Assembly: GCA_034439895.1 (NCBI GenBank)
Contig: JAWXBF010000003.1
Location: 6,819 to 70,818 of the forward strand
DNA length: 64,000 nt
Reading direction: 5' to 3'
DNA from: Deltaproteobacteria bacterium
GTDB lineage: Bacteria; Myxococcota_A; Polyangia; Fen-1088
The notes beneath the pieces are model-generated. The model worked only from the letters and a program-made list of their open reading frames with translations, did no database searches and had not been told where the DNA came from. Shown here one piece after another: positions 5,239 to 22,509 of the stretch (positions are counted from its first letter, which is position 1; each line of letters opens with the position of its first letter). The position numbers and the translations under genes are program-made.

Positions 5239-6336
5239 TCAGGGCAGCCTGGGTGCCTCGAAGGTTTCCTCGGAGGTCAACGACTGTACGAAGGCCATCA
5301 ACTGCGCGAGTTCCTGCTTGCTCAACTTTGCGGGTTTGAGCTTTTCATCCATGAACTTGTTCTTCTTTCCGCCGGCGACCATCAGCTTGACCGCATCTTC
5401 GAGGTTCGCGACGCTGCCGTCGTGGAAGTAGGGTCCTGACTTTGCGACCGAACGCAGGCTGGGTGTTTTGAAGGCGCCTGTGTGCTTCGGATCGTTTGAC
5501 ACCTTGAATCGTCCCACGTCAGGCTCCTTGGCATCCGAGCCGATGCCAACGTTGTGGAAATCGTGATCGGTGAAGAGCGGTGGTGCGTGGCACAACGCGC
5601 AGTGGGCTTTCTCGGTGAAGATCTTGTAACCTGCGATGACGTCTTCCGATACTGCGTTGGCTTCCGCTTTTTCGTGGCGATCCCAGGCCGAACCACCGCT
5701 GTTGAGGGTGCGTACAAAGGCAGCGATGGCAGCCGCGATGGTGTCGCCCGTGATGCCTGCTGCGCCGAAGGCATCTTCAAACCGAAGTTTGTATTCCTCG
5801 ATGGCCTGCAGTGCCGCAGCGGCTTTCCCTGGATCGCCGCTCATGTGGCCCTTCCAGGCCGCGGCGATCTGTTTTTCAAAATTCGCAGCACGACCATCCC
5901 AGTACCAGTGGGGTTGGAACCCAACGTTATAGAGGGTGGGCGAGTGGCGGGTGTTCACGGTGCCGTCGACCTTGGTCGAGAGCGCAAGTGCATCGGTCCA
6001 ACCCTTGTCGTGCTGGTGACACGTTTCGCAACTGGCCGATCCGTCGGCGGAAAGGCGTTTGTCGAAAAACAACATCTTGCCAAGCTGTACCTTCGCGGGT
6101 GAAAGCGCGCTTTCGGGTGGAATCGGCATTTCGGGCAGACCGGCCGGCATCGCGGTCAGTTCGGGAGAGGGTGGCGGCTCGGGCTTCGGCGCAGGAGCCG
6201 GTGCGGCGGGGACCGGTGGCGGCGGTGGCTCCGCTTTCTTGCAGGCCGCCACGCCTGCAACCGCGAATACAAGGGAGAGGTAAATTCTGAGAGTCCGTTT
6301 TGCCCGCATGGGCAGGGATTGTCGTTGTCCATTCAC
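5239..6336 (-). CDS. di-haem cytochrome c peroxidase (CCP/MauG family), lipoprotein
   Basis: Two CxxCH haem sites (CETCHQ, CALCHA), the conserved FKTPSLRSV and GPYFHDGS motifs, a lipoprotein signal and a Pro-rich linker. Confidence 0.85.
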   Translation of the reverse strand: MNGQRQSLPMRAKRTLRIYLSLVFAVAGVAACKKAEPPPPPVPAAPAPAPKPEPPPSPELTAMPAGLPEMPIPPESALSPAKVQLGKMLFFDKRLSADGSASCETCHQHDKGWTDALALSTKVDGTVNTRHSPTLYNVGFQPHWYWDGRAANFEKQIAAAWKGHMSGDPGKAAAALQAIEEYKLRFEDAFGAAGITGDTIAAAIAAFVRTLNSGGSAWDRHEKAEANAVSEDVIAGYKIFTEKAHCALCHAPPLFTDHDFHNVGIGSDAKEPDVGRFKVSNDPKHTGAFKTPSLRSVAKSGPYFHDGSVANLEDAVKLMVAGGKKNKFMDEKLKPAKLSKQELAQLMAFVQSLTSEETFEAPRLP

Positions 6337-6506
6337 TGCCGGTCAAGTACCAGCGCGGAACTCCTCACATAAATCCGCTTGCATGCTTCGGTGCGGCGGT
6401 CGGTTAACCCGGCTCCGGCGGAGACGCATTCGCAACACGTCAGGATCCTGTAAAAACTCGTTTCGCGACGGATCACGACCGCGGGTATGGGTGTAGATCA
6501 CCGCCC

Positions 6507-7661
6507 ATGATTCGTACGCCTTGCCCTGGATTGCCATGGTTGTTGCTCGGGATTGTCGTTGTATCGTCGATACACCCCGTCTTCGCTGCGGACGCGGTTG
6601 CCCCAAAGGCCGCGCCTCCGGACGAGCCCAAGCCGACTTTGTTGTGGCCCAAGGGTGCCCCGGGTGCGGTTGGAACCGAACCGAAAGATCAACCAAGCAT
6701 CGCTGTTTATCCGGCCCCCGCAAGCGACAAGGCCTCGGCCACTGCCGTGATCGTTTTTCCCGGTGGCGGTTATTCGATGCTGGCAGCCAATCACGAGGGT
6801 GCGCAGGTCGCCCGTTGGTTTAATGCCCAAGGTGTTACCGCCTTCGTCCTCCGGTATCGCCACGCGCCGTTTTACCAACATCCGATCCCCATCGGTGACG
6901 CGCAACGCGCGATTCGTACGGTTCGGAGCAGGGCGGCCGAGTATCACATCTCGCCGGATCGCATTGGCATCATGGGTTTTTCGGCAGGCGGACATCTTGC
7001 GGCGACGGCCTCGACGCGCTTTCTTCCGGGGAATCCGCGCGCAAGCGATCCCATTGATCGCGTGAGCAGCCGGCCAGACTTCGCTGTCTTGGCGTATCCC
7101 GTGATCTCGTTGGTGGCCCCGTTTTCGCACACGGGCTCGGCGGAGGCCTTGCTTGGCAAGGACGCCGATCCGCGTTTGTTGGATGAGCTGTCGGCCGAAA
7201 AACGTGTTACGGCCCGTACGCCGCCGACGTTTCTGTTCCATACGAGCGACGATCCGGGCGTCTCGGTTGATAACTCGATAGCGTATTACCAGGCCTTGCG
7301 CGCCTTCAAGGTCGCGGCCGAAATGCACATCTACCAAAAGGGCAAACACGGCGTCGGCCTCGCGCCCGACGATCCTGCTTTGTCGGGTTGGCCGGGTCGA
7401 CTCTCCGATTGGCTGAAGACGCGCGGAATGTTGGATCCTCCGCCGCCCTGCAAGCTTGCGCTCAAGGGCAATTCTCCTGTTGCCATCGCCTGTCGTGTTG
7501 GTGGCAAGCCTTCCGCCGGTGCAAAAATGCACGAGATGCAGGATCGGGCCAAGGCGCGCGGAGCGGATTTTTCGTGCGGCGATTGTCATAGCAAGGACAC
7601 GCTCACCGAAAACGCTGCGAAAGATTTCGAGCGTCTCGTGAAGTTGGCGAGCGGCCGATAG
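6507..7661 (+). CDS. secreted alpha/beta-hydrolase (esterase/lipase-type, GxSxG) with a C-terminal Cys-rich extension
   Basis: Signal peptide; VIVFPGGGY oxyanion-hole-like motif; nucleophile elbow GFSAGGH; later HTSDD and KGKHG (Asp/His of the triad). The C-terminal ~90 aa contain CKL...CRVGG...CGDCH. Confidence 0.75.
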   Translation: MIRTPCPGLPWLLLGIVVVSSIHPVFAADAVAPKAAPPDEPKPTLLWPKGAPGAVGTEPKDQPSIAVYPAPASDKASATAVIVFPGGGYSMLAANHEGAQVARWFNAQGVTAFVLRYRHAPFYQHPIPIGDAQRAIRTVRSRAAEYHISPDRIGIMGFSAGGHLAATASTRFLPGNPRASDPIDRVSSRPDFAVLAYPVISLVAPFSHTGSAEALLGKDADPRLLDELSAEKRVTARTPPTFLFHTSDDPGVSVDNSIAYYQALRAFKVAAEMHIYQKGKHGVGLAPDDPALSGWPGRLSDWLKTRGMLDPPPPCKLALKGNSPVAIACRVGGKPSAGAKMHEMQDRAKARGADFSCGDCHSKDTLTENAAKDFERLVKLASGR

Positions 7662-7673
7662 GGCTTGACTAAC

Positions 7674-8045
7674 TCAGTCGCATTCTCCACTTTGTTGTCC
7701 CGTGATCTGACCGCGCAGCGCCTCGACGTGTTCCAGCCAGCGTTGCCGGATGTCCTCGGGTACGTCGTGGGCGGCAAGGACGTTGCGCAATATCTGGGAT
7801 CGCCTGTCGAAGTGACCCCCCATGATCGGATGGCTTCGGTGCGCTTCTCGCATTGGCCGTCCGGTGTAGGGAAAATCAGCGCCCAGCATGCGTGCAGCGA
7901 GCTCGAACTCGCGTTGCTTGAGTGTCGTCGGGTCGATGTTGGCGAAGAAAAATCCGATCATCAGATCAGATGTGACACGGTTGATGAAATCGTCCACGAT
8001 CGCGCGCAACTTCGCCTCTCCGAGACGCAAATAAGCATCGGTCAT
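7674..8045 (-). CDS. glbN: truncated (2/2) haemoglobin
   Basis: Size is 123 aa. Motifs RLGEAKLRAIVDDF, GFFFANID, MLGADFPYTG and MREAHRSHPI match the trHb fold, including the proximal His. Confidence 0.8.
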   Translation of the reverse strand: MTDAYLRLGEAKLRAIVDDFINRVTSDLMIGFFFANIDPTTLKQREFELAARMLGADFPYTGRPMREAHRSHPIMGGHFDRRSQILRNVLAAHDVPEDIRQRWLEHVEALRGQITGQQSGECD

Positions 8046-8330
8046 GACAGCTTTCGCGTGGCGTCGTCAATCAACTTCACGCCGATCGCGTCCGTCGCAA
8101 TCTGTCTCTCTTGGTTTCGGACGGCCAGCGTCGATTGGCCCAGGCGGGTCCACTGGCGCGGTGCGTCTTGCGTGGGATTCTTCCGTGGTTTGAGAATGCG
8201 AAAACCTGGTTTCTCGTTCCCGGGTTGGGAGGTGTCCACATGGCGTAAGGGAGATTGTACCGCGGATAGAGAACTCTGGCGGGATTGCTCCTAAAGGAAG
8301 GCCTTCGGTAAGCCGAATCACAAAGACACG

Positions 8331-8771
8331 ATGGCGATTCACGCGAGCAAGAAGGATGTTCCCAGGGAATCCGCAGCCGGAAGCTCCCCGGACGACTCGA
8401 AGGGAGCCGAACCGGAGGGTTCTGACCGCCGCGAGTACAAGCGCTACGAGGTCAACGTCGACGTGAACTTCGAGAGCGCCAGTAACTTTTTCACGGGATT
8501 GACCCAGGACATCAGTCGGGGCGGACTCTTCGTGGCAACCTATGATTTGCGGGCGGTTGGCGAACAGGTCCTCGTGAAGTTTCAACTTCCGGACGAGCCC
8601 AATCCTCTTGAAATCACAGCGATCGTGCGTTGGGTTCGCGAAAACACCTCGCTGCAACGAGCCGAGACCTACGGCATTGGGTTGCAGTTCGTCGATCTTC
8701 CGGCTGAAACGGTTGCCATGATCGATCGGTTCATGACCAAGCGGGATTCCATATTCTACGACGTCGATTGA
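8331..8771 (+). CDS. PilZ-domain c-di-GMP receptor
   Basis: Canonical RxxxR (RREYKRYE) and D/NxSxxG (QDISRGGLFV) PilZ motifs. Confidence 0.8.
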   Translation: MAIHASKKDVPRESAAGSSPDDSKGAEPEGSDRREYKRYEVNVDVNFESASNFFTGLTQDISRGGLFVATYDLRAVGEQVLVKFQLPDEPNPLEITAIVRWVRENTSLQRAETYGIGLQFVDLPAETVAMIDRFMTKRDSIFYDVD

Positions 8772-8886
8772 GTTGCACGGGGGTGACGGAGATCTTGCGT
8801 TTCGTTCTGTTTGGGATGATACGGTTCGATGGCAAACTGGTAGGTGACTCGGGTTACAAGTTGGCCGTGGCCTTGAGGTTGTCGCC

Positions 8887-10521
8887 ATGATCCGTTCCGA
8901 AATGACGAAGCTTGCGCCACCGGAGGCCGCGCGCAAGCTGACTCGGCAGCGGTTTCGTGGGATCTTGATAGTGTTCATCACCGGGCTCGTACTCGGGGGG
9001 TCAACGATTGCGACTGTGCTCGTGTATCGCGTATTCGCAGAGTTCAACTCGGCCGTTGAAGCCGATCTGCGCTGGAAGGCCGTGCGCGGCGCACGTGAAG
9101 TGGCCACCGCAGCCGACGTGGCCATTGCCCTTGGCGATGTGCCTATGGTTACCGAATCCTTTGGTGACTATCGCTCGGGCGGCGACATTCGGTCGGTGGT
9201 TGCGGTCGATACAAAGGGTGTGGTGATTGCGAAGCACGGCAAGGTCCTCACCCCGATTGCCCAGTTTTTTGCTGGCAAAGAGGGCGATCTTCGCCAGGAC
9301 GAGGACGGCTTTTCCTCCTGGGTGTCGTCGCGCATTGAGGGGCAAGAAGTTGGACGTGTGGCGGTTGTGATTTCAAAAGATCGCTTGAAATCAGGCTATC
9401 GTTTGCGCCAACGCTTCCTGTTGCTTGCGGCAGCGGGTTGCGTGGCTGGGATTTTGATTAGCATCTTCTTCGTGAACGCCTACATCGCGCCTTTGCTGAA
9501 ATTCACCCTGCAAACGCTCGATTCATTGACCGAATTGAATGAAACCCTGGAACAGCGGGTCTCGGTTCGCACCGCCGAGTTGTCACGGGCAAACGGCGAT
9601 CTGGCGCACAGCCTTGAGGAACTCAACAACACTCAGGTTCAGCTTGTCGATGCCTCGCGGAGGGCCGGCATGGCGGATGTGGCCACCACCGTGTTGCACA
9701 ACGTCGGCAACGTTTTGAACAGCGTCAACGTATCTTCCGAGATGATTCACGAGGCGCTTCGGACCTCGGCGGGCGCCAATCTCGATAAAATGGCCCAGTT
9801 GCTGAAGGCTCAGGGCGCCAATGTTCACAGCTTTCTTGCAACGGATCCCCGAGGTCAAAAGGTTCCAACCTTCTTGATAGCGTTATCCGAGGCGGTGTCG
9901 AAGGAACGAAACCGCGTGATGCACGAGGTTGAATCCCTGCGCGACAATATCGATCACATCAAGAACATCATCACCCGCCAGCAAGAGCTGGCCAGAGTAC
10001 GCCACGGGGTAATCGAAATAATCCCGATTCACACCGTGCTCGACTCGGTGATCCGAATGGTGCAGCCCTCTTTTGAAAAACGCAGCATTGAGATTCTAGG
10101 GACCTATACCCAGAACCCACGCAAGGTGGCGATCGATCGGCACAAACTGTTCGAGGTTTTGATGAACCTTCTGACGAATGCGCGCCAGGCGGTTGAGGAT
10201 CAGGTCGGACCCAAGCGCGTGACGATCATCGTAGAATACGACGATGAAACCCTTCGCATCGAAGTCCAGGACAACGGTTCCGGCATCGCACCCGAGAATC
10301 TGGCGCACATTTTTGAACAGGGGTTCACGACCAAGGCCAAGGGTCACGGGTTTGGCCTGCATGGGAGCGCCTGCCACATGATCGAGATGGGTGGAAAACT
10401 TCGCGCTCGCAGCGCTGGATCGGGGCTCGGTGCCACGTTTGTGGTTGAGTTGCCACTTCCGGCGGAATCCCATGAACCGATGGGCCGAACGACGCAGGAG
10501 TTGGTCGCAATTCGAGCTTGA
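8887..10521 (+). CDS. membrane sensor histidine kinase (2 TM helices, periplasmic sensor domain, coiled coil, HisKA, HATPase)
   Basis: TM helices at about residues 25-47 and 178-200. The H-box is ATTVLHNVGNVLNSV. The N/D/G boxes are LLTNARQA, DNGSGI and GHGFGLHGSACHMIEMGG. Confidence 0.85.
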   Translation: MIRSEMTKLAPPEAARKLTRQRFRGILIVFITGLVLGGSTIATVLVYRVFAEFNSAVEADLRWKAVRGAREVATAADVAIALGDVPMVTESFGDYRSGGDIRSVVAVDTKGVVIAKHGKVLTPIAQFFAGKEGDLRQDEDGFSSWVSSRIEGQEVGRVAVVISKDRLKSGYRLRQRFLLLAAAGCVAGILISIFFVNAYIAPLLKFTLQTLDSLTELNETLEQRVSVRTAELSRANGDLAHSLEELNNTQVQLVDASRRAGMADVATTVLHNVGNVLNSVNVSSEMIHEALRTSAGANLDKMAQLLKAQGANVHSFLATDPRGQKVPTFLIALSEAVSKERNRVMHEVESLRDNIDHIKNIITRQQELARVRHGVIEIIPIHTVLDSVIRMVQPSFEKRSIEILGTYTQNPRKVAIDRHKLFEVLMNLLTNARQAVEDQVGPKRVTIIVEYDDETLRIEVQDNGSGIAPENLAHIFEQGFTTKAKGHGFGLHGSACHMIEMGGKLRARSAGSGLGATFVVELPLPAESHEPMGRTTQELVAIRA

Positions 10522-10544
10522 CCGGGCTGAAACTAACCGAGTCT

Positions 10545-11225
10545 CTAAACGGAGCCGGGTGTCCGCGCGGTTCGCGTCGGCGCTTGACCGGATGGTCCCA
10601 GCATCCGCCGGTAAAGCTGGCGGGTGACGTCTCCAATGGCGGTCGCCTGACTTTTGAGGAGGATCCGCCGTACCATGGTCTTCGTGCTGTTCTGACTGAT
10701 GCTCATCACATCGGGGATCTCTTTCAAGGCGATACCCGACGAGACGTGGCGGACAAGCTCGGTTTCCCGGGGCGACAGTTGGTGCTGTTCGCTCCATTCG
10801 CCGAGGCAACGTTCAAAATCCTGTCGAAAGGAGGGTTGTCGCATGGCCTGATCGACGAAGGCCTGCAAGTTGTCCTGGCTCCAGGGTTTCCAGAGGAACT
10901 GCGCTCCCAATCTCTGGGCGCGGCTGATGTGTTCGTGTTTGCTGTGCGCTGTCAGCACCAGCGCCGGGACCCGTATCTCTTTGCGACGAAGATTTTCCAG
11001 CACGTCGAGACCCGAACCATCCGGTAGATCCACATCGAGTAAGACCCCACAGCAGCGGTGGATGTTCGACAGGAGTGCCTCGGATTCTCCGAGTGTGGTC
11101 GCGTGCCGAACCGGCGCGTATTGCCCAAGAAAACGCGCAAGCGCCATCGATACCTGCGGATCATCTTCCAGCAGGAACCAATACGGCGATGCCGTCAAAT
11201 CGCGTTCGCTACGATCCGGTGGCAC
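10545..11225 (-). CDS. response regulator, NarL/FixJ (LuxR HTH) family
   Basis: REC motifs (LLEDD, LLDVDLPDGSG, ALVLTAH) followed by a LuxR HTH (LSPRETELVRHVSSGIALKEIPDVMSISQNSTKTMVRRILLK). Confidence 0.85.
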   Translation of the reverse strand: MPPDRSERDLTASPYWFLLEDDPQVSMALARFLGQYAPVRHATTLGESEALLSNIHRCCGVLLDVDLPDGSGLDVLENLRRKEIRVPALVLTAHSKHEHISRAQRLGAQFLWKPWSQDNLQAFVDQAMRQPSFRQDFERCLGEWSEQHQLSPRETELVRHVSSGIALKEIPDVMSISQNSTKTMVRRILLKSQATAIGDVTRQLYRRMLGPSGQAPTRTARTPGSV

Positions 11226-11295
11226 GCGTTACACTCTCACTTGAAAATTCGACCATTGATCCAGGTGGTCCCCACACTGCTGCCGTTCGGCTGAA

Positions 11296-12063
11296 GTGGC
11301 AATATATCGCGGAGTGCCTGTTTTGCCCAAAAATCTAAAATTTCCGGTCGGCGCATCGGAGGTATCCGAGGTTCTCGCGGCCGAACAAACTGCGACGGCG
11401 GCTTTCGTGGCAGGCAAGGTTTTGCACGAACTGGGCAATCCTGCGGCAGCCATCAAGAGCAACCTCAGCTTCGTTTTGGATGTCTTGCCGGGTCTGGCGG
11501 TACAACTATCGGGTCCGGATCGGGAGACCTTCGAGGAAGCCGTTGCCGCGGTACGGGAAACCGAGCAGGCCAATGACGCGCTGGTCGCACGGCTTGAACA
11601 GCTGCGGGCTGCTGACACCAACTTCGCCGCAGGTCCCACGACAGACATCGTCGTTCTGGCGCAGCGTTTCGCCGCTCCGGCGGGCGGTCCCATGTTCAAC
11701 TGCACGCTGTCCAACGCCGAGCCAGGGCTCATGATCATGGGCACTCCGGCCGTCTGGTCGGTAGTTTTCTTTCGTGTTGCCGCGATCCTGAAGGGTGGGG
11801 ACACCTTGGGTGTTGGCGTTGAACTTGAACTGGCGCGGGTCGGGTCCGAGTTGGAGCTTCGGTTTTCAAGCGCAAGCTGGTCCACGATTGCGGGTACCCC
11901 CCTTGAAGGCGTGGCCCCCTTTGTCCTCGCCCGGAAAGTCCGTCACGCGCGCATCGACGAGACGGCCCTGGACGACTTGCTGGGGCGACTCCAGGGTCGG
12001 TTGCAGAGGTCAGGATCGAGCGGCGCGTTGTTGGGGTTGACGATAACTGTTCCGTTGAAATGA
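11296..12063 (+). CDS. histidine-kinase-like protein with a HisKA-type H-box but a degenerate or absent ATPase (N/D/G) domain
   Basis: The H-box GKVLHELGNPAAAIKSNLSF is from the same family as the neighbouring HKs. The C-terminal half has no recognisable N, D or G boxes. Its stop overlaps the start of the next gene (ATGA). Confidence 0.45.
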   Translation: MAIYRGVPVLPKNLKFPVGASEVSEVLAAEQTATAAFVAGKVLHELGNPAAAIKSNLSFVLDVLPGLAVQLSGPDRETFEEAVAAVRETEQANDALVARLEQLRAADTNFAAGPTTDIVVLAQRFAAPAGGPMFNCTLSNAEPGLMIMGTPAVWSVVFFRVAAILKGGDTLGVGVELELARVGSELELRFSSASWSTIAGTPLEGVAPFVLARKVRHARIDETALDDLLGRLQGRLQRSGSSGALLGLTITVPLK

Positions 12064-13331
12064 CGCACACGACCCGACGCCAACTTTGGGGTGACGCTCC
12101 ACAACAGTTTTCTGACGCGTCTGTCGATGGGAAAGCGGGTGACCAAATGGCCAATGTGATTGGGTCGGTGTTGATAGCTGACGACGATCCGACGATTCTT
12201 CGTACACTCAAGCGGGCGTTGTCCGCGCTGGGATACGACGTGAGAACGGCAGACAATGGCAACGTGGCCGTGGAGGACACTCGCCAGTTTTCGTTCGACG
12301 CAATCATTGCCGACATCGATATGCCAGGCATGACAGGCATCGAGATGTTGAAGGCCGTTCGCGCGAGCGATCCCGATGTTCCCGTGTTGCTAATCACGGG
12401 CGATCCGGGTCTGGACACGGCCATGCGTGCCGTCCGATACGGCGCGTTTCGATACCTTCCGAAGCCCATCGAGATGGACGAGCTTGCCGAATCGCTGGCA
12501 TTTGCCGTTCAGGTTCACCGTTTGGCTCGCATCAAACGCGAGGCCCTGGCGCTGTTTGGCGAAAATGATCGTCAGGCCTCCGATCTTGCGGGACTCGAAC
12601 GCGATTTTGATTGCGCGATGTCTTCGATGTGGATGGCGTTTCAGCCGATCGTTTCGTGGCGCCAAAAGAAAATTATTGGATACGAAGCCTTGCTGCGCTC
12701 AGTTGAGCCGGCGTTGCCACATCCCGGCGCAATCCTCAGTGCTGCTGAACGACTCGATCGCATGCGTGAACTGGGCAACCGCGTGAGGGAGGCGTCTGCC
12801 GCGGAAATGACCGACCTTGCGCCCGATTTGACCGTGTTCGTGAATCTGGCGGCGCAAGATCTGGCAGACGAGTCGTTGTACTCAAATGTAGCACCCTTGT
12901 CGAAGGTGGCTTCGCGCGTGGTACTTGAAATCACCGAGCGCGTGAATCTCGATGGGATCTCGGATATCGAACGACGGATGTCCGCGTTGCGCGAGCTGGG
13001 CTTCCGCCTGGCGGTGGACGATCTCGGTGCCGGCTACGCAGGGCTCACAAGCTTCGTGAAGATTCGGCCGGATATCGTCAAGGTGGACATGAGTCTTGTG
13101 CGCAACATTCACCTGGACGCGGCCAAACGCAAGTTGGTGGGTGCTCTCATCGATCTCTCAACGAGCATGGGCATTCAAACCGTCATTGAGGGTATCGAGA
13201 ACGCCGATGAACTTGCCGTGGTGGTCGAGCTTGGCGCCGACCTGATGCAGGGCTTTCATTTCGCCGTTCCTGGCATTCCTTTCCCGACCGTTCCTCCCGC
13301 TCGTTTTGATCTGAAAAATTCCGAGAGCTGA
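12060..13331 (+). CDS. response regulator with EAL c-di-GMP phosphodiesterase domain (REC-EAL)
   Basis: REC (LIADDDP, IADIDMPGMTG, LLITG) and EAL catalytic residues (EALLR, FVNLA, EITER, DDLGAGYAG, KVD, EGIE, QGF) are all present. Confidence 0.9.
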   Translation: MTHTTRRQLWGDAPQQFSDASVDGKAGDQMANVIGSVLIADDDPTILRTLKRALSALGYDVRTADNGNVAVEDTRQFSFDAIIADIDMPGMTGIEMLKAVRASDPDVPVLLITGDPGLDTAMRAVRYGAFRYLPKPIEMDELAESLAFAVQVHRLARIKREALALFGENDRQASDLAGLERDFDCAMSSMWMAFQPIVSWRQKKIIGYEALLRSVEPALPHPGAILSAAERLDRMRELGNRVREASAAEMTDLAPDLTVFVNLAAQDLADESLYSNVAPLSKVASRVVLEITERVNLDGISDIERRMSALRELGFRLAVDDLGAGYAGLTSFVKIRPDIVKVDMSLVRNIHLDAAKRKLVGALIDLSTSMGIQTVIEGIENADELAVVVELGADLMQGFHFAVPGIPFPTVPPARFDLKNSES

Positions 13332-13335
13332 ACCC

Positions 13336-15345
13336 ATGAGAGCCAATCCTGCAGCCAAGGACCCTATGCCGAATCCCACTGCGCCGACCGGCTATCGCGT
13401 CCTCATCATTGATGACAATCCCGCAATCCACGAAGACATTCGCAAGATTCTGATTCCGTCTGCAAGGCGAGATGAATTGCTCGATCAGATGAGCGCCGAG
13501 TTATTTGGAGAGGTTGCACCAAAGGCCGATTTTTCGATGGTATTCAAAGCCGACTCGGCCTTGCAGGGCAAAGAAGGCTACGAGATGGTCAAGGCCAAGT
13601 TGGCCGCCGGCGAGCCCTACATGTTGGCGTTTGTGGACGTTCGAATGCCGCCGGGTTGGGATGGCATCGAGACCATCGAGCATCTGTGGAACGCGGATCC
13701 TTCGCTCCAGATCGTCTTGTGCACCGCGTACTCGGACCACTCCTGGAAAGAGATCTCACAACGCTTGCCACGCCTCGATGGGTGGCTGGTGCTGAAGAAG
13801 CCTTTCGATACCATCGAAGTTCTGCAGAGCGCCCACTCTCTGGCCAGCAAGTGGATGCTGGGCGAGCAACTCCGGCACGAATTTCAGGACCTTGAGGGGA
13901 TCGTTGCGGATCGCACCAAGGAACTCAAGCTCATCAATGAAAGATTGATGCACGAGATCACGGAACGCAAGGCGGCCGAGACCAATCTCAAACACCTGGC
14001 AACCCATGATGCGTTGACCGGGCTTTCCAATCGTTTGTTGTTGCGCGATCGACTGGATCTTGCCGTGGCGCGCGGGCGACGATTCAAGACTCCCACCGCC
14101 CTGATGATGTTGGACCTTGATGGCTTCAAAGAAGTCAATGACTCTCTCGGGCACGAAGCCGGCGACGCGTTGCTTAAAACAATGGCATCGAGACTCAAGA
14201 AGGCGGCCCGTGAATGTGATACGGTTTCCCGATTCGGCGGCGACGAGTTTGTCATCTTGCTCACTGATCTGGCAAACGAGGACGATACGCGCGTGGTGGC
14301 GGAAAGGGTTTTGGCCTCGGTGGCCGAGCCCGTTCCCTTTGGGGGCCAAAGCCTGTCGGTGACCACCAGCATTGGTATCGCGGTGTTCCCGCGCGACGGA
14401 GAAGATGCCGAGACCTTGCTCAAATGCGCCGACATCGCCATGTACGAAGCCAAGGCGGGTGGTCGCAATGGGTATCGTCACTACGTTGCAGGGACCGCCG
14501 TCAAGCTGACCGAACGAATGGCGCTGCGCGACGATCTAAAGCGCGCAATCGAAAACGACGAGCTGGATCTGCAATACCAGCCGCTCATTGATTTGAGAGA
14601 CGAATCCATTGTGGGCATCGAGGCCCTGTTGCGCTGGAACCACCCAATACACGGCGTCATCGATCCGATGCGCTTTCTGCCCAATGCCGAGGAATCCGGA
14701 CAAATCGGTTCGATTGGCAAATGGGTCGTTGAAAAGGCCTGTCGACAAAGCATGCTCTGGCGCCGGAAGGGCCTGCGACCGGTGCCGATGGCCGTCAATT
14801 TGACTGCCGCAGAGCTCGAGCGCGAAGACCTGGCATCGATGATAGAGGGTATATTGAAGGACACTGGGCTTGATCCCAAAGCGTTGCAGATCGAAGTCAC
14901 AGAAACCGCAGCCACCCGAAATTTGGAACTGTCGGAACGAAATCTCGTAAGCCTTTCGAATATGGGTGTTGGCATCGTCATCGACGATTTTGGTGCGGGA
15001 ACTTCTTCGTTGCGGCGCCTCAAACGATTGCCGGTGGACGCGATCAAGATCGATCGGCTGTTTATCAAGAATATCGCCGAAGATCCGCGGGATGCCGCCA
15101 TCGTTGCGGCGGTGGTGTCGCTCGCCCGATCGCTTGGCATTCGTGTGATAGCTGAAGGGATCGAGACCCGTGCTCAGCTTGAATTCCTGCGCGGGCTGAA
15201 GTGGCAGGTGCCCTCCGAGTTGCAGTGTCAGGCCGGGCAGGGGTTCCTGTTCTCGCGGCCGATCTCGGCACGTGAGATCGAGCGCATAATGGGCGAAGAC
15301 CGCGTCAGCGAATCCGATACACCCCGCATCAAGGACGAAAGGTAG
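13336..15345 (+). CDS. response regulator with GGDEF and EAL domains (REC-GGDEF-EAL)
   Basis: REC (LIIDDNP, FVDVRMPPGWDG); GGDEF with an I-site (RECD-TVSRF-GGDEF); EAL (EALLRWNHP, EVTET, DDFGAGTSSL, EGIE). Confidence 0.9.
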   Translation: MRANPAAKDPMPNPTAPTGYRVLIIDDNPAIHEDIRKILIPSARRDELLDQMSAELFGEVAPKADFSMVFKADSALQGKEGYEMVKAKLAAGEPYMLAFVDVRMPPGWDGIETIEHLWNADPSLQIVLCTAYSDHSWKEISQRLPRLDGWLVLKKPFDTIEVLQSAHSLASKWMLGEQLRHEFQDLEGIVADRTKELKLINERLMHEITERKAAETNLKHLATHDALTGLSNRLLLRDRLDLAVARGRRFKTPTALMMLDLDGFKEVNDSLGHEAGDALLKTMASRLKKAARECDTVSRFGGDEFVILLTDLANEDDTRVVAERVLASVAEPVPFGGQSLSVTTSIGIAVFPRDGEDAETLLKCADIAMYEAKAGGRNGYRHYVAGTAVKLTERMALRDDLKRAIENDELDLQYQPLIDLRDESIVGIEALLRWNHPIHGVIDPMRFLPNAEESGQIGSIGKWVVEKACRQSMLWRRKGLRPVPMAVNLTAAELEREDLASMIEGILKDTGLDPKALQIEVTETAATRNLELSERNLVSLSNMGVGIVIDDFGAGTSSLRRLKRLPVDAIKIDRLFIKNIAEDPRDAAIVAAVVSLARSLGIRVIAEGIETRAQLEFLRGLKWQVPSELQCQAGQGFLFSRPISAREIERIMGEDRVSESDTPRIKDER

Positions 15346-15355
15346 CGGGACGGTC

Positions 15356-16273
15356 GTGAAGGCGCCCGAGTCCAATACCGGCTCGTCCGTGCAAAACGGA
15401 GAACCGGATCCCACAACAGCTTTGCCACAGGGCACGGAAGCCATGTGGCGCCTGGCGTTGAATGCCCAAGCCGCAAACGGCATATTGCACAACCTCGGCA
15501 ATGTGATGACGAGTGTTAGCATTACGACCGACATGACTGTCGACCTCGTAGAAGGTTCAAGCGTGTCGAACGTTCGTCGGGTGGTTGAACTCATGCGGTC
15601 AAGGCAAGACGACTTGGCGACCTTCCTGACCATGGACGACAAAGGTCGATCCGTGTTGCCTTTCCTTGACCGGCTCGCCACCACATTGGAGGACGAGCGC
15701 CACGAATTGGCCGAAGAGCTAGGTCGGCTGCGTGAGCAACTGGGCCATGCGCGTCGAATCCTGAATCGTCACCAACAACTTTCTCATGCAAGTGGCGTGA
15801 CGGAGGTCTGCCGTCCCGGTGAGATGATTGAACAGGCGATTGAACTTGCGCTTCCGGACGGAACACGTGGAGATATGCGGGTATGGAATGATTGCGAAAC
15901 GGCAACTCGCCTCGTGGTCGATCGCCAGCTTGTGCTTCAAATCCTGGTGAACCTGTTGCGCAACGCCAAGGACGCGATTCACGTCGCAGAGGGTCGCGTC
16001 GGTCAGATTCGAATCAATGCGTTCACAACTGACACCGGCAAGATCCAATTTGAGGTCAGTGACAACGGCGCGGGAATTTCACCCGAGAATAAGCAACGCT
16101 TGTTCGCCTATCGATTTACCACGAAGAAGGGCGGCAACGGTCTTGGGCTTTATTCTAGCGGCATCGCAGCGCAGGAGCTCGGCGGTCGTCTGACCTGTAC
16201 AAGTCCACCAGGCAATGATGGGGCGACCTTTGTTCTCGAGCTGCCCGTGGTGTTGTCCGAGGGGCAACTCTAA
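15356..16273 (+). CDS. cytoplasmic histidine kinase (paralogue of the 8887 HK)
   Basis: H-box GILHNLGNVMTSVS, N box LLRNAKDA, D box DNGAGI, G box GGNGLGLYSSGIAAQELGG, and no TM segments. Confidence 0.8.
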   Translation: MKAPESNTGSSVQNGEPDPTTALPQGTEAMWRLALNAQAANGILHNLGNVMTSVSITTDMTVDLVEGSSVSNVRRVVELMRSRQDDLATFLTMDDKGRSVLPFLDRLATTLEDERHELAEELGRLREQLGHARRILNRHQQLSHASGVTEVCRPGEMIEQAIELALPDGTRGDMRVWNDCETATRLVVDRQLVLQILVNLLRNAKDAIHVAEGRVGQIRINAFTTDTGKIQFEVSDNGAGISPENKQRLFAYRFTTKKGGNGLGLYSSGIAAQELGGRLTCTSPPGNDGATFVLELPVVLSEGQL

Positions 16274-17307
16274 CGTCCGGATTGGCGGGTAACGAAGGTC
16301 CACTCGAAGGTGACCGGTTTGCCTCCCCTCGAGCCCGCCAGGCGAACGCGATAGCGTGTCATTCCACGCAGCGGTTCGTGGGTGTAGAGGAAATATTCGT
16401 CTTGCAGCAAGTCCGCTGCCACGGGATCCCCGGGGCCCACGAAGTGGTGAGCCAGATTTTGCTCGGTGCCATCAACCACGATGGAATGTTCCGTGATGGC
16501 AACGCCGGGGGCATGCAGGCTGACAGGATAGCCGCTTGGCCAGCCGCGCGGCGGTTCGGGCGGTAACGGTGATTCGTTGCCGTCAAACTCGGTCGGCACG
16601 TTGCTTTGGCCCGGTGCCGGATAGTAGATGGTCGAGCTTTTGTCGGTTGTACTGAGTCTGGAAAAATCCATCGTGTCGCAGAGGTTGACTGTGCCGTAGC
16701 CGACGGTCGCCACTTCGTGGGACAAAAGCGGTACACGATGCCAGACTGAGTTGAGCCACAGATCGACCGCCCATGCGCCGTCGCCGACATAGGCCATTAC
16801 CTCGTAGATGCCTTCTCCGTTGTACCCGGCTTTTTTGATGCGGTCGGTGAACCGCTCGCCTGTGAAGCCGGGGCATCCCGTTATCTCCCGATGGGGATTC
16901 AGCACGCATTCGGCCTTGGTTTCGTTCTGGCTGTAATAGTCGCAATGTTTCTTGGCTGCGGACGCTATTGCAGATTGATACGCAACACAGGGCAGCCCGA
17001 CGCCGGTTCGCAATGTATTCAGTCGGTCGAACGCGCGTTCCGCTTCGGTTCCAATTGTTGCGCCTGGGCCCGGACATTTGTGCGGCGCGAAGGGTAGTGC
17101 TTGGACCACCGGGTTGGGAAGTTCGCCGTCGTTGAGGCGAGATGGCATGGCGTCTGTCACCCCGGCGTCCGAGCGCGGCGTAAGCCGTCGATCCAGGATT
17201 GCCCCGTCGGTGAATGCCGGGACAATCTGGGCGATTGACGTGAAATCCGGACCGCAGGCAGATCCCAGCGCGAGGGAACAGAAGGCGACGCACGCAGACA
17301 GATGCAT
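16270..17307 (-). CDS. secreted CAP/SCP (PR-1-like) domain lipoprotein with a C-terminal extension
   Basis: Lipoprotein signal LALGSAC and the CAP motif WLNSVWHRVPLLSHEVATVGYG (HRxxLL), with a Cys-rich region. Confidence 0.5.
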   Translation of the reverse strand: MHLSACVAFCSLALGSACGPDFTSIAQIVPAFTDGAILDRRLTPRSDAGVTDAMPSRLNDGELPNPVVQALPFAPHKCPGPGATIGTEAERAFDRLNTLRTGVGLPCVAYQSAIASAAKKHCDYYSQNETKAECVLNPHREITGCPGFTGERFTDRIKKAGYNGEGIYEVMAYVGDGAWAVDLWLNSVWHRVPLLSHEVATVGYGTVNLCDTMDFSRLSTTDKSSTIYYPAPGQSNVPTEFDGNESPLPPEPPRGWPSGYPVSLHAPGVAITEHSIVVDGTEQNLAHHFVGPGDPVAADLLQDEYFLYTHEPLRGMTRYRVRLAGSRGGKPVTFEWTFVTRQSGR

Positions 17308-17310
17308 CGA

Positions 17311-18537
17311 TCAATATCGCTTGTAGAAGCGTTCCCAGGCCATCTTGTCGATGCCCGGAAGCGCGAAGAGCCGAACTTCGCTCATATTCGTTGTGTCGGA
17401 CTCGGTCAGCAAGATGCGACCGGAAACGGTGAGTGCGGGTTGCCCTTCTTCGGTGATTTCGACGCGCGACACCCCGCCTTCGGGCATGGGAGACGGGCAG
17501 GTGCAGATAAAGCCTTCTTCGGTGATGGTCGTAATTCGACAATCGACATCACCGTTCGAGCGGTGCCAACGTGCGGGGAGGTCAACCGTCTTGCGGTTTC
17601 CTTGCAGCAAGGAACTCGGGCGATTGATGCGTGCAGGCATGTGTTGCCAGGTAGGGTTCGCGCCGCCGAGGCTGTTGACGAATGACGGGATTAGCGGAAG
17701 CGTCTCCATGAGCGCGTCGGCTTCTCGATCATTTTGGATGGACGCGAGTTGGGTCAAGTCATGTGGAAGTAAGTATGGACAGTCTTCAATCAACTTGACG
17801 ATTTCGTCGGTTGCCACCATGACGTCGACGACGTTGCGATGTTCGCGTGCTGCTCCGGGCTCGTGGTGGTGGGCGATGGATTCACGCAACAGCGCCGAGA
17901 GATTCCACTTGGTTGCAACGAGTCCGCCGATCTGGACGTGGAATGAATCGACGACATCCATCCATTCCTGTGTGGTCAGATTGCCAGAGAATTTTCGCTC
18001 GATCAGTATTGTTTCTAGCCCCACGACAGCGACCAGACGGCCAATATCGTGAAGTAATCCGGCCATAAAGCCATGGTCTGCGTTTAATCGTCTGTAATAC
18101 GCCAGCGACTCTGCGATGATGGCGCTTGTCAGCGATTGACGCCAGATGGTTTGTCGCAGGATTGACAGGGGACTTGTCTGCATGACGGCATGGCCGAGCG
18201 TCGCGGCGATCGCGATTCGACATGCTTCGTCGGCTCCCAGGGTTGCGACCGCGCGCTCAACGGTGGATACCTCGACACCACTTCGTTTGAAGTGCACAGA
18301 ATTCGCAACACGCAGCATCGCGGCTGCAAGCGCCTGGTCCTTCTTGATGACGCCTGCGAGATCGGTCATTCGATACTCGCCGCTGCTCACCAATTGCCGC
18401 AGTTTCATGGCGACGGCGGGAAAGGGGGGAATGTCCAGCGTTCCCGTCTCCGCTTTTTGAGAAAGGTAGAGTCGAAGGTGATCCGCCGAGATCGGAACAG
18501 GGCTCTTGGGGGATAGCACGGTGTTCATGATGACCAC
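17311..18537 (-). CDS. HDOD-domain protein with a C-terminal, possibly PilZ-like, beta domain
   Basis: HDOD core (MLRVANSVHF...GLLHDIGRLV). The C-terminus carries R-rich and TITEEGF motifs that loosely resemble PilZ RxxxR...DxSxxG. Confidence 0.7.
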   Translation of the reverse strand: MVIMNTVLSPKSPVPISADHLRLYLSQKAETGTLDIPPFPAVAMKLRQLVSSGEYRMTDLAGVIKKDQALAAAMLRVANSVHFKRSGVEVSTVERAVATLGADEACRIAIAATLGHAVMQTSPLSILRQTIWRQSLTSAIIAESLAYYRRLNADHGFMAGLLHDIGRLVAVVGLETILIERKFSGNLTTQEWMDVVDSFHVQIGGLVATKWNLSALLRESIAHHHEPGAAREHRNVVDVMVATDEIVKLIEDCPYLLPHDLTQLASIQNDREADALMETLPLIPSFVNSLGGANPTWQHMPARINRPSSLLQGNRKTVDLPARWHRSNGDVDCRITTITEEGFICTCPSPMPEGGVSRVEITEEGQPALTVSGRILLTESDTTNMSEVRLFALPGIDKMAWERFYKRY

Positions 18538-18553
18538 AGCTCCATCGGCGGAA

Positions 18554-18871
18554 TCAGGGCACAGCCGAAGGGATCCGGCGCCGAATGTGGCGGGCAGCTT
18601 GCATCCGCTGGTTCAGCACGTGGCGCGCTCGGTCAAGGGCAGCCTGCCAGCGCGCGTCCCGGTCGTTGATCTCCGCAAGAACGGCCTGTCCTTCTCCCTC
18701 CACCGCACTGCTGTTCGCCATCACCTGTTGTAAGAGCGCGAGGCTCTCTTCGCGCGCTTCGGTCATCTGTTGCGCCAATGCAATCACGTCGCTCGGATCG
18801 GTCTCCCCATCGGGCGGCTCCGGGGTCGCTGCCAACACATCAAGCAACGCCTGCATGGCGAGCCCGTTCAT
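18554..18871 (-). CDS. small alpha-helical protein in the fliD-fliS operon, possibly a FliT-like chaperone
   Basis: Assigned by position only (immediately after fliS; 105 aa, acidic, helical). It has no diagnostic motif. Confidence 0.3.
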   Translation of the reverse strand: MNGLAMQALLDVLAATPEPPDGETDPSDVIALAQQMTEAREESLALLQQVMANSSAVEGEGQAVLAEINDRDARWQAALDRARHVLNQRMQAARHIRRRIPSAVP

Positions 18872-19242
18872 GCGGATCGTACCCTGGCTTCTGCGAAACC
18901 CGATTGAATGCCAGCGAGGATCGATTCGGCTTCAAGGATCGGTTCGATTTTCATCTTGACCGTAGCCTCGAGCAACCGTTCGCGCGCGTACTGGTAGAGG
19001 CGTGCCAGATTGTTGCAAACATCGGGTGCGGTCTTGTAATCGAGTGCACCGCGCAAGGCCCACAAAAGTTCAAGCGCGTGGGCGAGATGCGATCGCCCCG
19101 TGACTTGATCGTTGTTCTCGATGCACGTGCGTGCTTGCGAACAATCGCGCGAGAAACGAACGAAAACCTCGTCGAGTATACGCTCTGGCGTTGCTGAATC
19201 GAGAGAGACTTTTTTATAGGAACCAGCGGCACGGGCGTACAT
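18868..19242 (-). CDS. fliS: flagellar export chaperone FliS
   Basis: Size 124 aa with a FliS-like N-terminus (YARAAGSYKKVSLDSATPERIL...). It overlaps the fliD-operon neighbours. Confidence 0.8.
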   Translation of the reverse strand: MYARAAGSYKKVSLDSATPERILDEVFVRFSRDCSQARTCIENNDQVTGRSHLAHALELLWALRGALDYKTAPDVCNNLARLYQYARERLLEATVKMKIEPILEAESILAGIQSGFAEARVRSA

Positions 19243-19257
19243 GGATTCTCCTTGTTA

Positions 19258-20595
19258 TCAGAGCGAGCGAAGGTAGTTCGACTGGGCCTGCATGCGTGAG
19301 GTGATCTGTTCGAGGGCAAGAAACTGACGTTGCAACGACTCGCCTATCGAGGTTGCGCGACGCTCAACGCGAACAATCTGGTCGTCAAATCCTCGGATGG
19401 AACCGTTGATCGATTGTTGTTTGCTAACGAGGTGACCCGTTTGTTTACTCGGATCCGGATTGTATTGCGTCGAACCAACGCGCGTGAACTCGTCGACGAG
19501 TGCCACCAGGCCCGCGGCGAGTCCGTTGGCACCTGTGAATACGGCCGTGACAGCGGTGGGATCTGATTTGGCGATGGCATCAAAGACCTTCTCGTCGAGC
19601 TTTAACTTTCCGCCCGTGTCGAACTTGATGCCGAGCTGAACCGGCGAGACGTTGCCGGCCCCGTGGGAAAACTGCCGGGTGATGGCTGCGGACAACCGGC
19701 CCTGGAGCGAGCGAAAGGTTGAATCACCGAAGAAGCTGTTTTCGCCTTTTTTCGTGCCGTTGTAGGTGACCTGGCTGTTCACGATCTCGGCTGCGCCATT
19801 GTAGTCTTCGATGAGTGCCTTGAGCTTGGCCTTTTGTCCCTCAAGATCCGCCGTGACGTCGACCTTTGTTGCGGACTCTCCGACGGGTGTTTTCGCAACG
19901 GCGGTGAAGGTGACACCGGCTACAACGTCCGAAAACTCGTTGGTTGAACGCGTAATCGTGACACCGTTGAGTGTGATGCTGGCATCCACGGCGGCAGTTC
20001 GCTCAATGAGATCGAGCGTGGTTCCGCCTTCAACGAACGCAATCTGTTTGGCTGAGCCCGTCTCTTTTCCCGATATCGTAAGGTGGTAGTCGGTGCCGTC
20101 GTGCAAGACGCGGGCAATTACGCCGGTGACGTTGGTGTTGATGCGCGAAGCAATGGCATCAAGATTGTCGGCGCTTGTATAATTTACTGTCACGGGCGCA
20201 CCGGCACCTATCGTGATCTGAACGCTGCCATCGCCTGCGATACCGGCGGTATTTGATACGAAGCCCTTCGACTGGCTGGTGTGGGCCGTCGCCAGGTTGT
20301 TGACGAGCACGTCGAAACTTGCCGCGGTCGCGAGACTGGAAGCGGTGACACCGACGCGATCGGTGTTGCCGGATTTTGCGGAAAGGGCCTGGACTTCAAC
20401 GGGGGTGTCGAGTCCCTGCGCGTTGGTCTTGAGTGCCTTCAGGCGCGTGATCAGATTGCCGAGGGTCGAAAGACGCGTGTTCGCGGCGGTTTTGCGCTGG
20501 TTTAGCGTTGTAATCGGGGCCCGTTCAACCGCGATGAGCTGATCCACGATGGCCTGGGTATCAATGCCGGATGAGATGCCCGAAAACGAGATCAT
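19258..20595 (-). CDS. fliD: flagellar filament cap protein FliD (HAP2)
   Basis: N-terminus MISFSGISSGIDTQAIVDQLIAVERAPI and C-terminal heptads (ALEQITSRMQAQSNYL). Confidence 0.9.
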   Translation of the reverse strand: MISFSGISSGIDTQAIVDQLIAVERAPITTLNQRKTAANTRLSTLGNLITRLKALKTNAQGLDTPVEVQALSAKSGNTDRVGVTASSLATAASFDVLVNNLATAHTSQSKGFVSNTAGIAGDGSVQITIGAGAPVTVNYTSADNLDAIASRINTNVTGVIARVLHDGTDYHLTISGKETGSAKQIAFVEGGTTLDLIERTAAVDASITLNGVTITRSTNEFSDVVAGVTFTAVAKTPVGESATKVDVTADLEGQKAKLKALIEDYNGAAEIVNSQVTYNGTKKGENSFFGDSTFRSLQGRLSAAITRQFSHGAGNVSPVQLGIKFDTGGKLKLDEKVFDAIAKSDPTAVTAVFTGANGLAAGLVALVDEFTRVGSTQYNPDPSKQTGHLVSKQQSINGSIRGFDDQIVRVERRATSIGESLQRQFLALEQITSRMQAQSNYLRSL

Positions 20596-20638
20596 GTTTG
20601 ACCGCCTGCGCCTGGGGTTGGGGAAAGAAGGCCCGGGG

Positions 20639-22503: not shown

Positions 22504-22509
22504 GGCTTC

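Follow-up and report, generated by a model that had tools for sequence, protein, structure and literature searches.

A cluster of seven genes in a Deltaproteobacteria bacterium encodes p4, a protein that has the fold of a histidine kinase and lacks the ATP-binding site of one. The cluster lies at positions 8331-16273 of a stretch of 64,000 nucleotides (nt) of contig JAWXBF010000003.1 (assembly GCA_034439895.1; the whole stretch is referred to below as the window), and p4 is encoded ahead of two predicted enzymes of cyclic di-GMP (c-di-GMP) turnover, REC-EAL and REC-GGDEF-EAL. The helical hairpin that carries the phospho-acceptor histidine of p4 comes from a family of Myxococcota hybrid kinases, and p4 occupies the position at which a related locus has an intact kinase of that family before the same two c-di-GMP enzymes. 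We put at about even the chance that p4 is a kinase-dead descendant of the cognate kinase of REC-EAL and REC-GGDEF-EAL that now serves as their phosphatase.

p4 has a histidine kinase fold without an ATP-binding site

The seven open reading frames (ORFs) of the cluster encode, in order, a PilZ protein, the membrane histidine kinase HK2, the response regulator RR3, p4, REC-EAL, REC-GGDEF-EAL, and the soluble histidine kinase HK7. Domains were assigned by searches of the Pfam and NCBIfam libraries and motifs were checked by residue pattern; every domain named in a first-pass annotation of this DNA is supported by these searches, p4 being the product without a match. At E ≤ 0.1 neither library returned anything for p4, including HisKA, HATPase_c, and HPTransfase. 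The p4 gene is on the plus strand at 11323-12063 and encodes 246 residues from a TTG at 11323, which is the most likely start and has a GGAG sequence 8 nt upstream of it; the GTG at 11296 gives a protein of 255 residues.

A class I histidine kinase has a dimerization and histidine phosphotransfer (DHp) hairpin with an H-E/D-x-x-N/T-P H-box, together with a catalytic and ATP-binding (CA) domain that contains N, G1, F, and G2 boxes. The first of these is present in p4, whose H-box, VLHELGNPAAAIKSNL, reads HELGNP at residue 44, an ordinary H-E-x-x-N-P pattern that is invariant in all four orthologues, as are 31 consecutive residues around His44. The second is absent. In an AlphaFold2 model of p4 (pLDDT 68.7, pTM 0.68, from an alignment of five sequences) a DHp hairpin (residues 20-68 and 74-108) is followed by an alpha/beta domain with a Bergerat-like order of strands and helices, so that the modeled monomer has the ChpT-type architecture of a DHp joined to a Bergerat-like domain without ATP motifs. 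Comparison of this model with the PDB using Foldseek returned almost exclusively histidine kinases or kinase-like proteins, among them ZraS (E 4e-9), FixL chimeras, CpxA, DivL, RetS, and ChpT (4fmt, E 3.8e-6). By sequence p4 is not a member of the ChpT family (Pfam HPTransfase), and a search of the PDB with the p4 sequence gave only noise (DARPins and lanmodulin, E ≥ 0.09) and no ChpT.

The ATP site itself could not be found by any of the means that we applied. A hidden Markov model of the CA domain run with all filters off scored every p4 orthologue below 0 and the control kinase P0127 at 47.6 bits, and inspection of motifs found no N-box asparagine, no DxGxG, and no GxGxG in p4, in which the helix equivalent to the N box reads VWSVVFFRVAAIL. 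One candidate for a cryptic ATP motif, the D-x-x-G-x-G arrangement D169-T-L-G-V-G, was rejected as it lies in a loop none of whose nine positions is invariant and as the orthologues do not have it. What is left of a CA domain in the C-terminal part of p4 is the fold and the residues PF...K. The statement in the first-pass annotation that this protein has no recognizable N/D/G boxes is thus borne out, and no cryptic ATPase motifs came to light.

p4 had also been grouped with HK2 and HK7 as a set of paralogous kinases sharing one unusual H-box. HK2 and HK7 are indeed paralogues of one another (see below), but p4 is related to neither: BLASTP aligns p4 with them over the H-box only (E 0.005 and 0.09), profile comparison with hhalign gives a probability of 2.4% over 27 columns, which places p4 outside their family, and the HELGNP of p4 falls instead in a family with the pattern HE..(N/T)P.

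The DHp of p4 derives from a family of Myxococcota kinases

p4 is rare. There are only 4 p4 clusters in an index of 5.8 billion proteins, a single GTDB species genome (a 'Myxococcales bacterium' metagenome-assembled genome, MAG) carries the gene, and p4 occurs in none of 80 metagenome loci with distant REC-EAL homologues, although in about 10 of these a kinase of some sort is encoded no more than about 0.5 kb upstream of REC-EAL. A scan of 1.84 billion representatives with p4 returned the orthologue P0004, three matches confined to the DHp (residues 25-116), and a 981-residue repeat protein that looks unrelated. Two of the three DHp-only matches are REC-containing kinases and the third is a fragment of 132 residues; a follow-up search identified the DHp relatives of p4 as a family of 377-389-residue REC-DHp-CA hybrid kinases of Myxococcota with the H-box QATTTYLLGRVLHEL(A/S/G)NPAA. 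The DHp of p4 is homologous to that of real kinases, with pairwise E values of 7e-16 and 8e-12. Over this region p4 is 43% identical to one of the hybrid kinases, P0125, the residues from H+1 to H+8 and from H+11 to H+13 being the same in both, and this identical stretch covers the helix-1 positions that set partner specificity in other kinases.

P0125 is encoded at a locus (L010) in which the genes are ordered as an RR3 relative on the minus strand, a PilZ-containing protein, P0125, REC-EAL, and REC-GGDEF-EAL. REC-EAL and REC-GGDEF-EAL of this locus are 62% and 53% identical, respectively, to those of the window, no HK7 is present there, and P0125 has N, G1, F, and G2 boxes. The position of p4 is therefore that of an intact kinase of the same DHp family, before the same two c-di-GMP enzymes. 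We note that in L010 the gene of the REC-DHp-CA kinase (3097-4241) is frameshifted near its N box (…NLLTNACEA), with G1, F, and G2 in an ORF at 3939-4241, and that the frameshift reflects either a mistake in the assembly or the onset of the decay that also gave rise to p4. A separate idea, that RR3 is the detached REC domain of an ancestral REC-kinase, is not supported (22% identity between RR3 and the REC domain of P0125).

The ORF of p4 is intact in four lineages, at 228-249 residues, and the orthologues are 75% (locus L001), 71% (L005), and 55% (L006 and L008) identical to p4 of the window. In three pairwise comparisons the ratio of nonsynonymous to synonymous substitution rates (dN/dS) was 0.08-0.10 for the DHp of p4, 0.27-0.45 for its C-terminal domain, and 0.04-0.06 for REC-EAL; p4 is a real gene under purifying selection, and this selection is strongest on the DHp. 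The invariant fraction of positions is 0.71 in helix 1 of the DHp and 0.69 in helix 2. Conservation of the pseudo-CA domain is concentrated in residues 201-231 (TPL..VAPF.LARK...RID..LDDL.GRL), a region whose counterpart in genuine kinases and in ChpT helps to dock the receiver (PMC3433190). p4 is a very small new family in which the 'DHp plus dead CA' design arose independently, and its ancestry is unusually legible.

Possible roles of p4

According to the proposal that we favor, p4 would be what remains of the kinase cognate to the receivers of REC-EAL and REC-GGDEF-EAL after the loss of the REC domain and the ATPase of that kinase, and would still dock onto both receivers by way of its DHp and of the conserved lid-equivalent segment. 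Its function would be that of a dedicated phosphatase of both, possibly with acceptance of phosphoryl groups back on His44. A role as phosphatase or acceptor is what p4 would be left with since it could not use ATP, and the invariant asparagine at H+4 lends support to the former insofar as the phosphatase motifs of HisKA kinases apply here; Willett and Kirby reportedly tied this asparagine to phosphatase activity in HisKA kinases in 2012. Phosphoryl input would come from HK7, which has no sensor and is encoded in the same operon as the two enzymes, and perhaps from HK2 with its putative periplasmic loop. The balance of HK7 and p4 would then set the phosphodiesterase and cyclase output, and PilZ, other receptors, and perhaps the HDOD protein encoded nearby would read the resulting c-di-GMP and control motility. 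The suggestion of the first-pass annotation, that p4 could be a phosphotransfer partner or a partner with phosphatase activity only, is reasonable for a kinase fold without ATP motifs; between these two we favor the second.

Several considerations weigh against this proposal. Phosphatase activity, phosphotransfer, and pure scaffolding would all fit a conserved DHp, and activity is not readable from sequence. The DHp of HK7 is of a different family from that of p4, and the pairing of HK7 with the neighboring REC domains is putative. Confidence in the p4 model is moderate, given its pLDDT and shallow five-sequence alignment, and four lineages of p4 are too few for a test of covariation between p4 and the REC domains. 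Furthermore, the argument from ancestry is carried by the single L010 locus, the REC-kinase gene of which is frameshifted in the assembly, and in three other Myxococcota genomes the REC-kinases related to P0125 are encoded after another kinase and have no adjacent EAL gene, which makes the L010 arrangement one restricted to its lineage.

It is possible, although we consider it unlikely, that p4 is instead a dimeric histidine phosphotransferase, an independent analogue of ChpT and Spo0B. His44 would take a phosphoryl group from one REC domain, for instance one that had been phosphorylated by HK7 or HK2, and pass it to another (that of REC-EAL, REC-GGDEF-EAL, or RR3), the outcome being a His-Asp-His-Asp relay or a hub for sharing phosphoryl groups among the three REC proteins. 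Such a function would suit the invariance of His44 and of the entire H-box, as well as the presence of three REC proteins and two real kinases next to p4. Moreover, the combination of a DHp hairpin with a Bergerat-like domain devoid of ATP motifs is that of ChpT (PMC3433190), and PhyK is a kinase-like protein able to act as a phosphotransferase (PMC5964349). Yet p4 has no sequence relation to ChpT (neither HPTransfase nor any other Pfam family matches at E ≤ 0.1), the cluster contains no hybrid kinase or Spo0F-type stand-alone REC protein that would be an obvious donor, and the simplest product of a bifunctional kinase that has lost its ATPase is a phosphatase. The invariant asparagine at H+4 also argues for phosphatase activity, to which it is linked, and is not known to be needed for transfer.

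Less likely still is that p4 is a non-catalytic pseudokinase of the DivL type, a scaffold or sensor with no phosphoryl chemistry at His44, which would bind a REC domain (phosphorylated or not) or, with its remodeled C-terminal domain, some ligand (c-di-GMP, for instance) and would exert allosteric control over HK7, HK2, or the phosphodiesterase. The fold search with p4 returned both DivL and RetS, DivL receives the signal of a phosphorylated regulator through its kinase core (PMC4211667), segment 201-231 of p4, equivalent to the lid, is conserved despite the loss of the ATP motifs, and the CA domain of CckA binds c-di-GMP (PDB 5idm, a fold match of the HK7 model). However, p4 has kept the phospho-acceptor histidine together with E+1, N+4, and P+5 as invariant residues, whereas DivL has replaced its histidine; no c-di-GMP-binding motif was identified in p4, and heterodimers with HK2 or HK7 are unlikely given that the DHp of p4 is unrelated to theirs. 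The notion that p4 is a decaying, functionless remnant of a kinase and that the cluster works without it, which might be suggested by the loss of the REC domain and ATP motifs relative to the nearest relatives, by a tiny family evolving faster than REC-EAL (55-75% as against 88-97% identity), and by relaxed constraint on the C-terminal domain (dN/dS up to 0.45), is very improbable in view of an ORF that is intact and of similar length in four lineages at dS up to about 1.9, the low dN/dS of the DHp, the invariant block around His44, a conserved position and orientation, and the ribosome-binding site (GGAG) before TTG 11323.

HK2 and HK7 belong to a widespread family of kinases

HK2 (8887-10521, plus strand; 544 residues) is a membrane sensor histidine kinase with two hydrophobic segments, at residues 23-47 and 175-208, that flank a loop of about 125 residues. 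It matches HATPase_c at 77 bits and HisKA not at all, and its boxes read HNVGNV at 271, NLLTNA at 427 (N box), DNGSG at 462 (G1), and GHGFG at 486 (G2). HK7 (15356-16273, plus strand; 305 residues; HATPase_c 73.5 bits) has the corresponding sequences HNLGNV at 45, NLLRNA at 199, DNGAG at 236, and GNGLG at 260. It is soluble and sensorless, with no hydrophobic segment and only some 24 disordered residues ahead of its first helix, and an AlphaFold2 model consists of a helix (25-67), two short inserted helices (70-93), a second long helix (95-143), and then the CA domain. The two kinases are 32% identical over 270 residues (BLASTP E 7e-46).

The HN(V/L)GNV H-box of these proteins had been described as atypical and special to the cluster, which it is not: HN.GN. 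is present in 116 of the 120 best homologues of HK7, 90 of which have exactly HNVGNV, and in these homologues the H-box is embedded in a near-invariant block, VATxVLHNVGNVLNSVNV. Members of this large HNVGN family occur in Planctomycetota, Verrucomicrobiota, Myxococcota, and Pseudomonas, with PAS, HAMP, GAF, or REC input domains or none, and in no case is there a Pfam HisKA match. As judged from the alignment and the AlphaFold2 model, the family is marked by a long helix bearing the histidine, by two short helices inserted in the turn of the hairpin, by a second conserved block (EHIK..V..QQ), and by an NtrB-like CA domain with FTTK and GHGFGLH; HK2 and HK7 both have the VLHN(V/I/L)GNVLNS H-box, the inserted helices, the second block, and the CA motifs. 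By its modeled fold an HNVGN-type kinase is an ordinary class I kinase, and asparagine at H+1, where HisKA has aspartate or glutamate, is a trait of this unmodelled family and not of the locus. HisKA_2 and HWE kinases (HRVKN) are likewise not known to have an acidic residue at H+1. A search of the literature for the HNVGN motif found no relevant paper.

We note that in Pseudomonas (locus L091, 2403-5888; GCA_018614775.1) a single ORF of 1161 residues contains two kinase cores, laid out as HAMP/coiled-coil, HisKA, HATPase_c, REC, an HNVGN-type DHp, and a second HATPase_c, so that the HNVGN-type module makes up its C-terminal half, and that the public gene call retained just the last 295 residues of it. 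Gene callers can split or extend genes in loci of this kind, and kinases with the VLHNVGNVLNS H-box are annotated just as 'ATP-binding protein' since Pfam HisKA misses them.

The c-di-GMP enzymes, the PilZ protein, and RR3

REC-EAL (12147-13331, plus strand; 394 residues from ATG 12147) matches EAL at 172.5 bits and REC at 100.9 bits, has its phospho-acceptor aspartate in DIDMP, and aligns over its full length with an active EAL protein of solved structure (6ifq, E 1.4e-30). Its orthologues are 97%, 94%, 88%, and 61-62% identical to it. REC-GGDEF-EAL (13336-15345, plus strand; 669 residues) matches EAL at 232 bits, GGDEF at 164 bits, and REC at 36.7 bits, the last over residues 71-164 only, and has its phospho-acceptor aspartate in DVRMP at 101. 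All seven EAL motifs (EALLR, N, E(I/V)TE, DD(L/F)GAG, K(V/I)D, EGIE, and QGF) are present in both proteins, as would be expected of active EAL phosphodiesterases. Residues 292-305 of the 669-residue protein read RECDTVSRFGGDEF, with GGDEF at 301 and, five residues upstream of it, the RxxD I-site RECD at 292, a sequence that predicts a diguanylate cyclase subject to product inhibition. The motif check is therefore in accord with the earlier claim that both EAL domains and the GGDEF domain keep their catalytic and I-site residues. The REC domain of REC-GGDEF-EAL (window 13336-13850, residues 1-170) contains an insertion of about 45 residues after the segment IIDDNPAIHEDIRKIL; this insertion and an IHED.RKIL motif are also found in the L010 orthologue.

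RR3 (10545-11225, minus strand; 226 residues) is a response regulator with a REC domain (Response_reg, 52.6 bits; phospho-acceptor aspartate in DVDLP at 64) and a LuxR/FixJ-type helix-turn-helix that gives a weak GerE match (19.9 bits, cut-off 23.5) and a FixJ-like alignment across residues 16-202. In RR3, REC-EAL, and REC-GGDEF-EAL alike the REC domain has kept the acidic pair, the phospho-acceptor aspartate, the threonine, and the lysine.

The first gene of the cluster (8331-8771, plus strand) encodes a PilZ-domain c-di-GMP receptor of 146 residues (Pfam PilZ 63.2 bits; TIGR02266 80 bits, cut-off 68.7) in which both binding motifs lie inside the PilZ domain, RxxxR as REYKR at residue 34 and (D/N)xSxxG as DISRGG at residue 60. 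A truncated-globin (Bac_globin) gene (window 7674-8045, minus strand) lies directly upstream of the PilZ gene and divergent from it, an arrangement with PilZ that recurs in loci L001 to L004.

The start of REC-EAL and a conserved motif upstream

An ATGA at 12060-12063, at the end of p4, exists in the sequence, and the REC-EAL frame is open from the ATG at 12060, which had been taken to mean that the two genes are translationally coupled. We think this unlikely. In relatives REC-EAL is called from a start 115-136 nt past the p4 stop, as a protein of 394-398 residues beginning MANVIG; the interval between the genes contains a 52-nt indel among relatives; the frame of the upstream ATG closes after 13 codons in L001, as read from the alignment; and no Shine-Dalgarno sequence was found before 12060. 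For these reasons REC-EAL probably starts at ATG 12147, 87 nt downstream, the N-terminal extension of 29 codons (12060-12146) that is not conserved and the ATGA overlap being an artefact of ORF calling.

Also difficult to reconcile with coupling is a conserved, bipartite, non-coding motif at 12101-12130 on the plus strand (ACAACAGTTT, 12 nt, and GTCGATG). Ahead of REC-EAL genes the motif has the consensus ACAA(C/A)AGTTT, 12 nt, (G/A)(T/A)CGAT(G/A), and both of its boxes are retained in five loci (the window, L001, L005, L006, and L010) amid a divergent spacer and divergent flanking sequence. Possibly the motif is a promoter of the sigma-28 (FliA) type, which it resembles, and we treat this as a lead only. 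Promoters of this type read TAAAGTTT-N11/12-GCCGATAA, precede late flagellar or chemotaxis genes, and are expected where the genome encodes FliA. Against AAAGTTT-N12-GCCGATA, 12101-12130 has mismatches at 3 of 14 positions, which is not above chance in a scan of the window; the window as a whole showed no enrichment for the sigma-28 consensus, and no sigma-28-like motif was found in the region upstream of the flagellin gene. A scan of 8000-16600 for sigma-70 promoters and intrinsic terminators returned nothing that exceeded the expectation from shuffled sequence. An Rfam scan of 6000-19500 at E ≤ 0.1 gave no match and hence no c-di-GMP riboswitch.

Gene order and genomic surroundings

RR3, on the minus strand, is convergent with HK2 and divergent from p4, so the seven genes form several transcription units. 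REC-EAL, REC-GGDEF-EAL, and HK7, with spacings of 4 and 10 nt (HK7 starts 10 nt past the end of REC-GGDEF-EAL), look like one operon, upstream of which lie the genes of the PilZ receptor and of HK2. In relatives the order RR3(-)/p4/REC-EAL is kept in all lineages that have p4. The whole series RR3(-)/p4/REC-EAL/REC-GGDEF-EAL/HK7/CAP/HDOD/fliS is present in L001, and in the lineage with 55% identity in p4 the same order is split over two contigs of one sample; L005 has the RR3/p4/REC-EAL core. Thus the cluster is not broken up in close relatives and stays together as a c-di-GMP and two-component module by flagellar genes. 'Self-contained', the term used for it in the first-pass annotation, is nevertheless too strong, as PilZ and HK2 are more loosely linked than the rest and the L010 locus, which is more distant, has neither HK7 nor the flagellar genes. 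In L001 two genes without a Pfam match (451 and 170 residues; 3241-5096) lie between PilZ and HK2, and a gene for a CHASE2 protein (814 residues; 6739-9183) lies between HK2 and RR3; these three extra genes around HK2 indicate that the upstream half of the cluster is plastic.

The flagellar genes, which had been placed 2 kb from the cluster, are indeed close by, with the start of fliS 2.6 kb downstream of HK7. The order downstream of HK7 is a CAP-domain protein, an HDOD protein, fliS, fliD, flagellin, flgL, flgK, flgI, flgH, and rod genes; further on are fliA (29301-30014; TIGR02479 210.6 bits, above cut-off) and then flhG, flhF, and flhA. The HDOD protein (window 17311-18537, minus strand), between the cluster and fliS, has about 170 C-terminal residues without a Pfam match, and HDOD proteins are frequently linked to c-di-GMP and motility signaling. 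The window contains a full set of flagellar genes (18868-34145, minus strand), and the closest named relatives of the genome are Myxococcales and Myxococcota MAGs; cultured members of the Myxococcota phylum are not known to be flagellated. The best explanation of the cluster is that it is a lineage-specific module for c-di-GMP control beside late flagellar genes in an uncultured, flagellated, Myxococcota-like bacterium.

Comparison with known systems

The closest architectural parallel to p4 is ChpT of Caulobacter and Brucella (PDB 4fmt and 4qpj), which has a kinase fold, does not autophosphorylate, and binds neither ATP nor ADP (PMC3433190). Both proteins are small and soluble (about 210-250 residues) and consist of a His-bearing DHp hairpin and a Bergerat-like domain without ATP binding. 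However, there is no detectable sequence relationship between them, p4 coming from the Myxococcota REC-DHp-CA family with its HE..NP H-box; no CckA-type hybrid donor is encoded near p4; and the putative partners of p4 are c-di-GMP enzymes whereas those of ChpT are CtrA and CpdR. PhyP and PhyK of the alphaproteobacterial general stress response, which are membrane proteins of the HisKA_2/HWE type, resemble kinases without functioning as kinases, as would be the case for p4. In the PhyK reaction, phosphate is taken over from a REC protein and handed on (PMC5964349). These proteins belong to another pathway and another phylum, and p4 is soluble, with a DHp of the HE..NP type.

With regard to the cluster as a whole, the PvrSR/RcsCB (and Roc) systems of Pseudomonas aeruginosa similarly place a NarL/LuxR-type regulator and a REC-EAL protein under two opposed sensors, one a kinase and one a phosphatase, RcsC being the phosphatase that opposes the kinase PvrS (PMC3842833). 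The best NCBIfam match of REC-EAL in the window is PvrR (E 3.5e-33), but at 114.8 bits it falls far below the cut-off of 580, and so it is not a PvrR orthologue. Each of the Pseudomonas sensors is a complete hybrid kinase that includes an ATPase, in contrast to p4, the putative phosphatase of the window, which has none, and the window cluster adds REC-GGDEF-EAL and a PilZ receptor. The Myxococcota REC-DHp-CA kinases (P0125, P0127, and P0129-P0158), which supply the DHp family of p4 (QATxxxxxG+VLHEL(A/S/G)NPAA), have the same layout as LvrB of Leptospira (PDB 8vc9); unlike p4 they begin with a REC domain and have an entire CA domain, in which the N, G1, F, and G2 boxes are all present.

Implications

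Overall, the cluster is a common kind of c-di-GMP and two-component neighborhood in which all but p4 is ordinary, and p4 itself is of modest interest to two-component specialists and opens no long-standing question. Its interest stems from the fact that ATP-less proteins with a kinase fold, such as ChpT, PhyP, and DivL, are key nodes in the few pathways in which they have been studied and that few independent examples are known. In the case of p4 the route is visible: a relative retains an intact REC-kinase at the position of p4, before the same two c-di-GMP enzymes, and in the lineage of the window no more than the phospho-histidine helix bundle and an emptied catalytic domain survive, the operon ending there with another kinase, which is sensorless.

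A bolder reading, which we regard as doubtful, is that with p4 a separate class of phospho-histidine proteins, with a kinase fold and no use of ATP, evolved in flagellated Myxococcota to shuttle phosphoryl groups between REC-EAL and REC-GGDEF-EAL or to drain them from both. If so, p4 would tie the opposing activities of REC-EAL and REC-GGDEF-EAL together, its remodeled C-terminal domain might have been retained for docking or for sensing a ligand such as c-di-GMP, and the conserved sigma-28-like motif would turn on the operon served by p4 along with the late flagellar genes.

The cluster probably links flagellar expression to c-di-GMP turnover in this organism, and p4 provides a testable case of a two-component pair that divides the kinase and phosphatase (or transfer) roles between two proteins.

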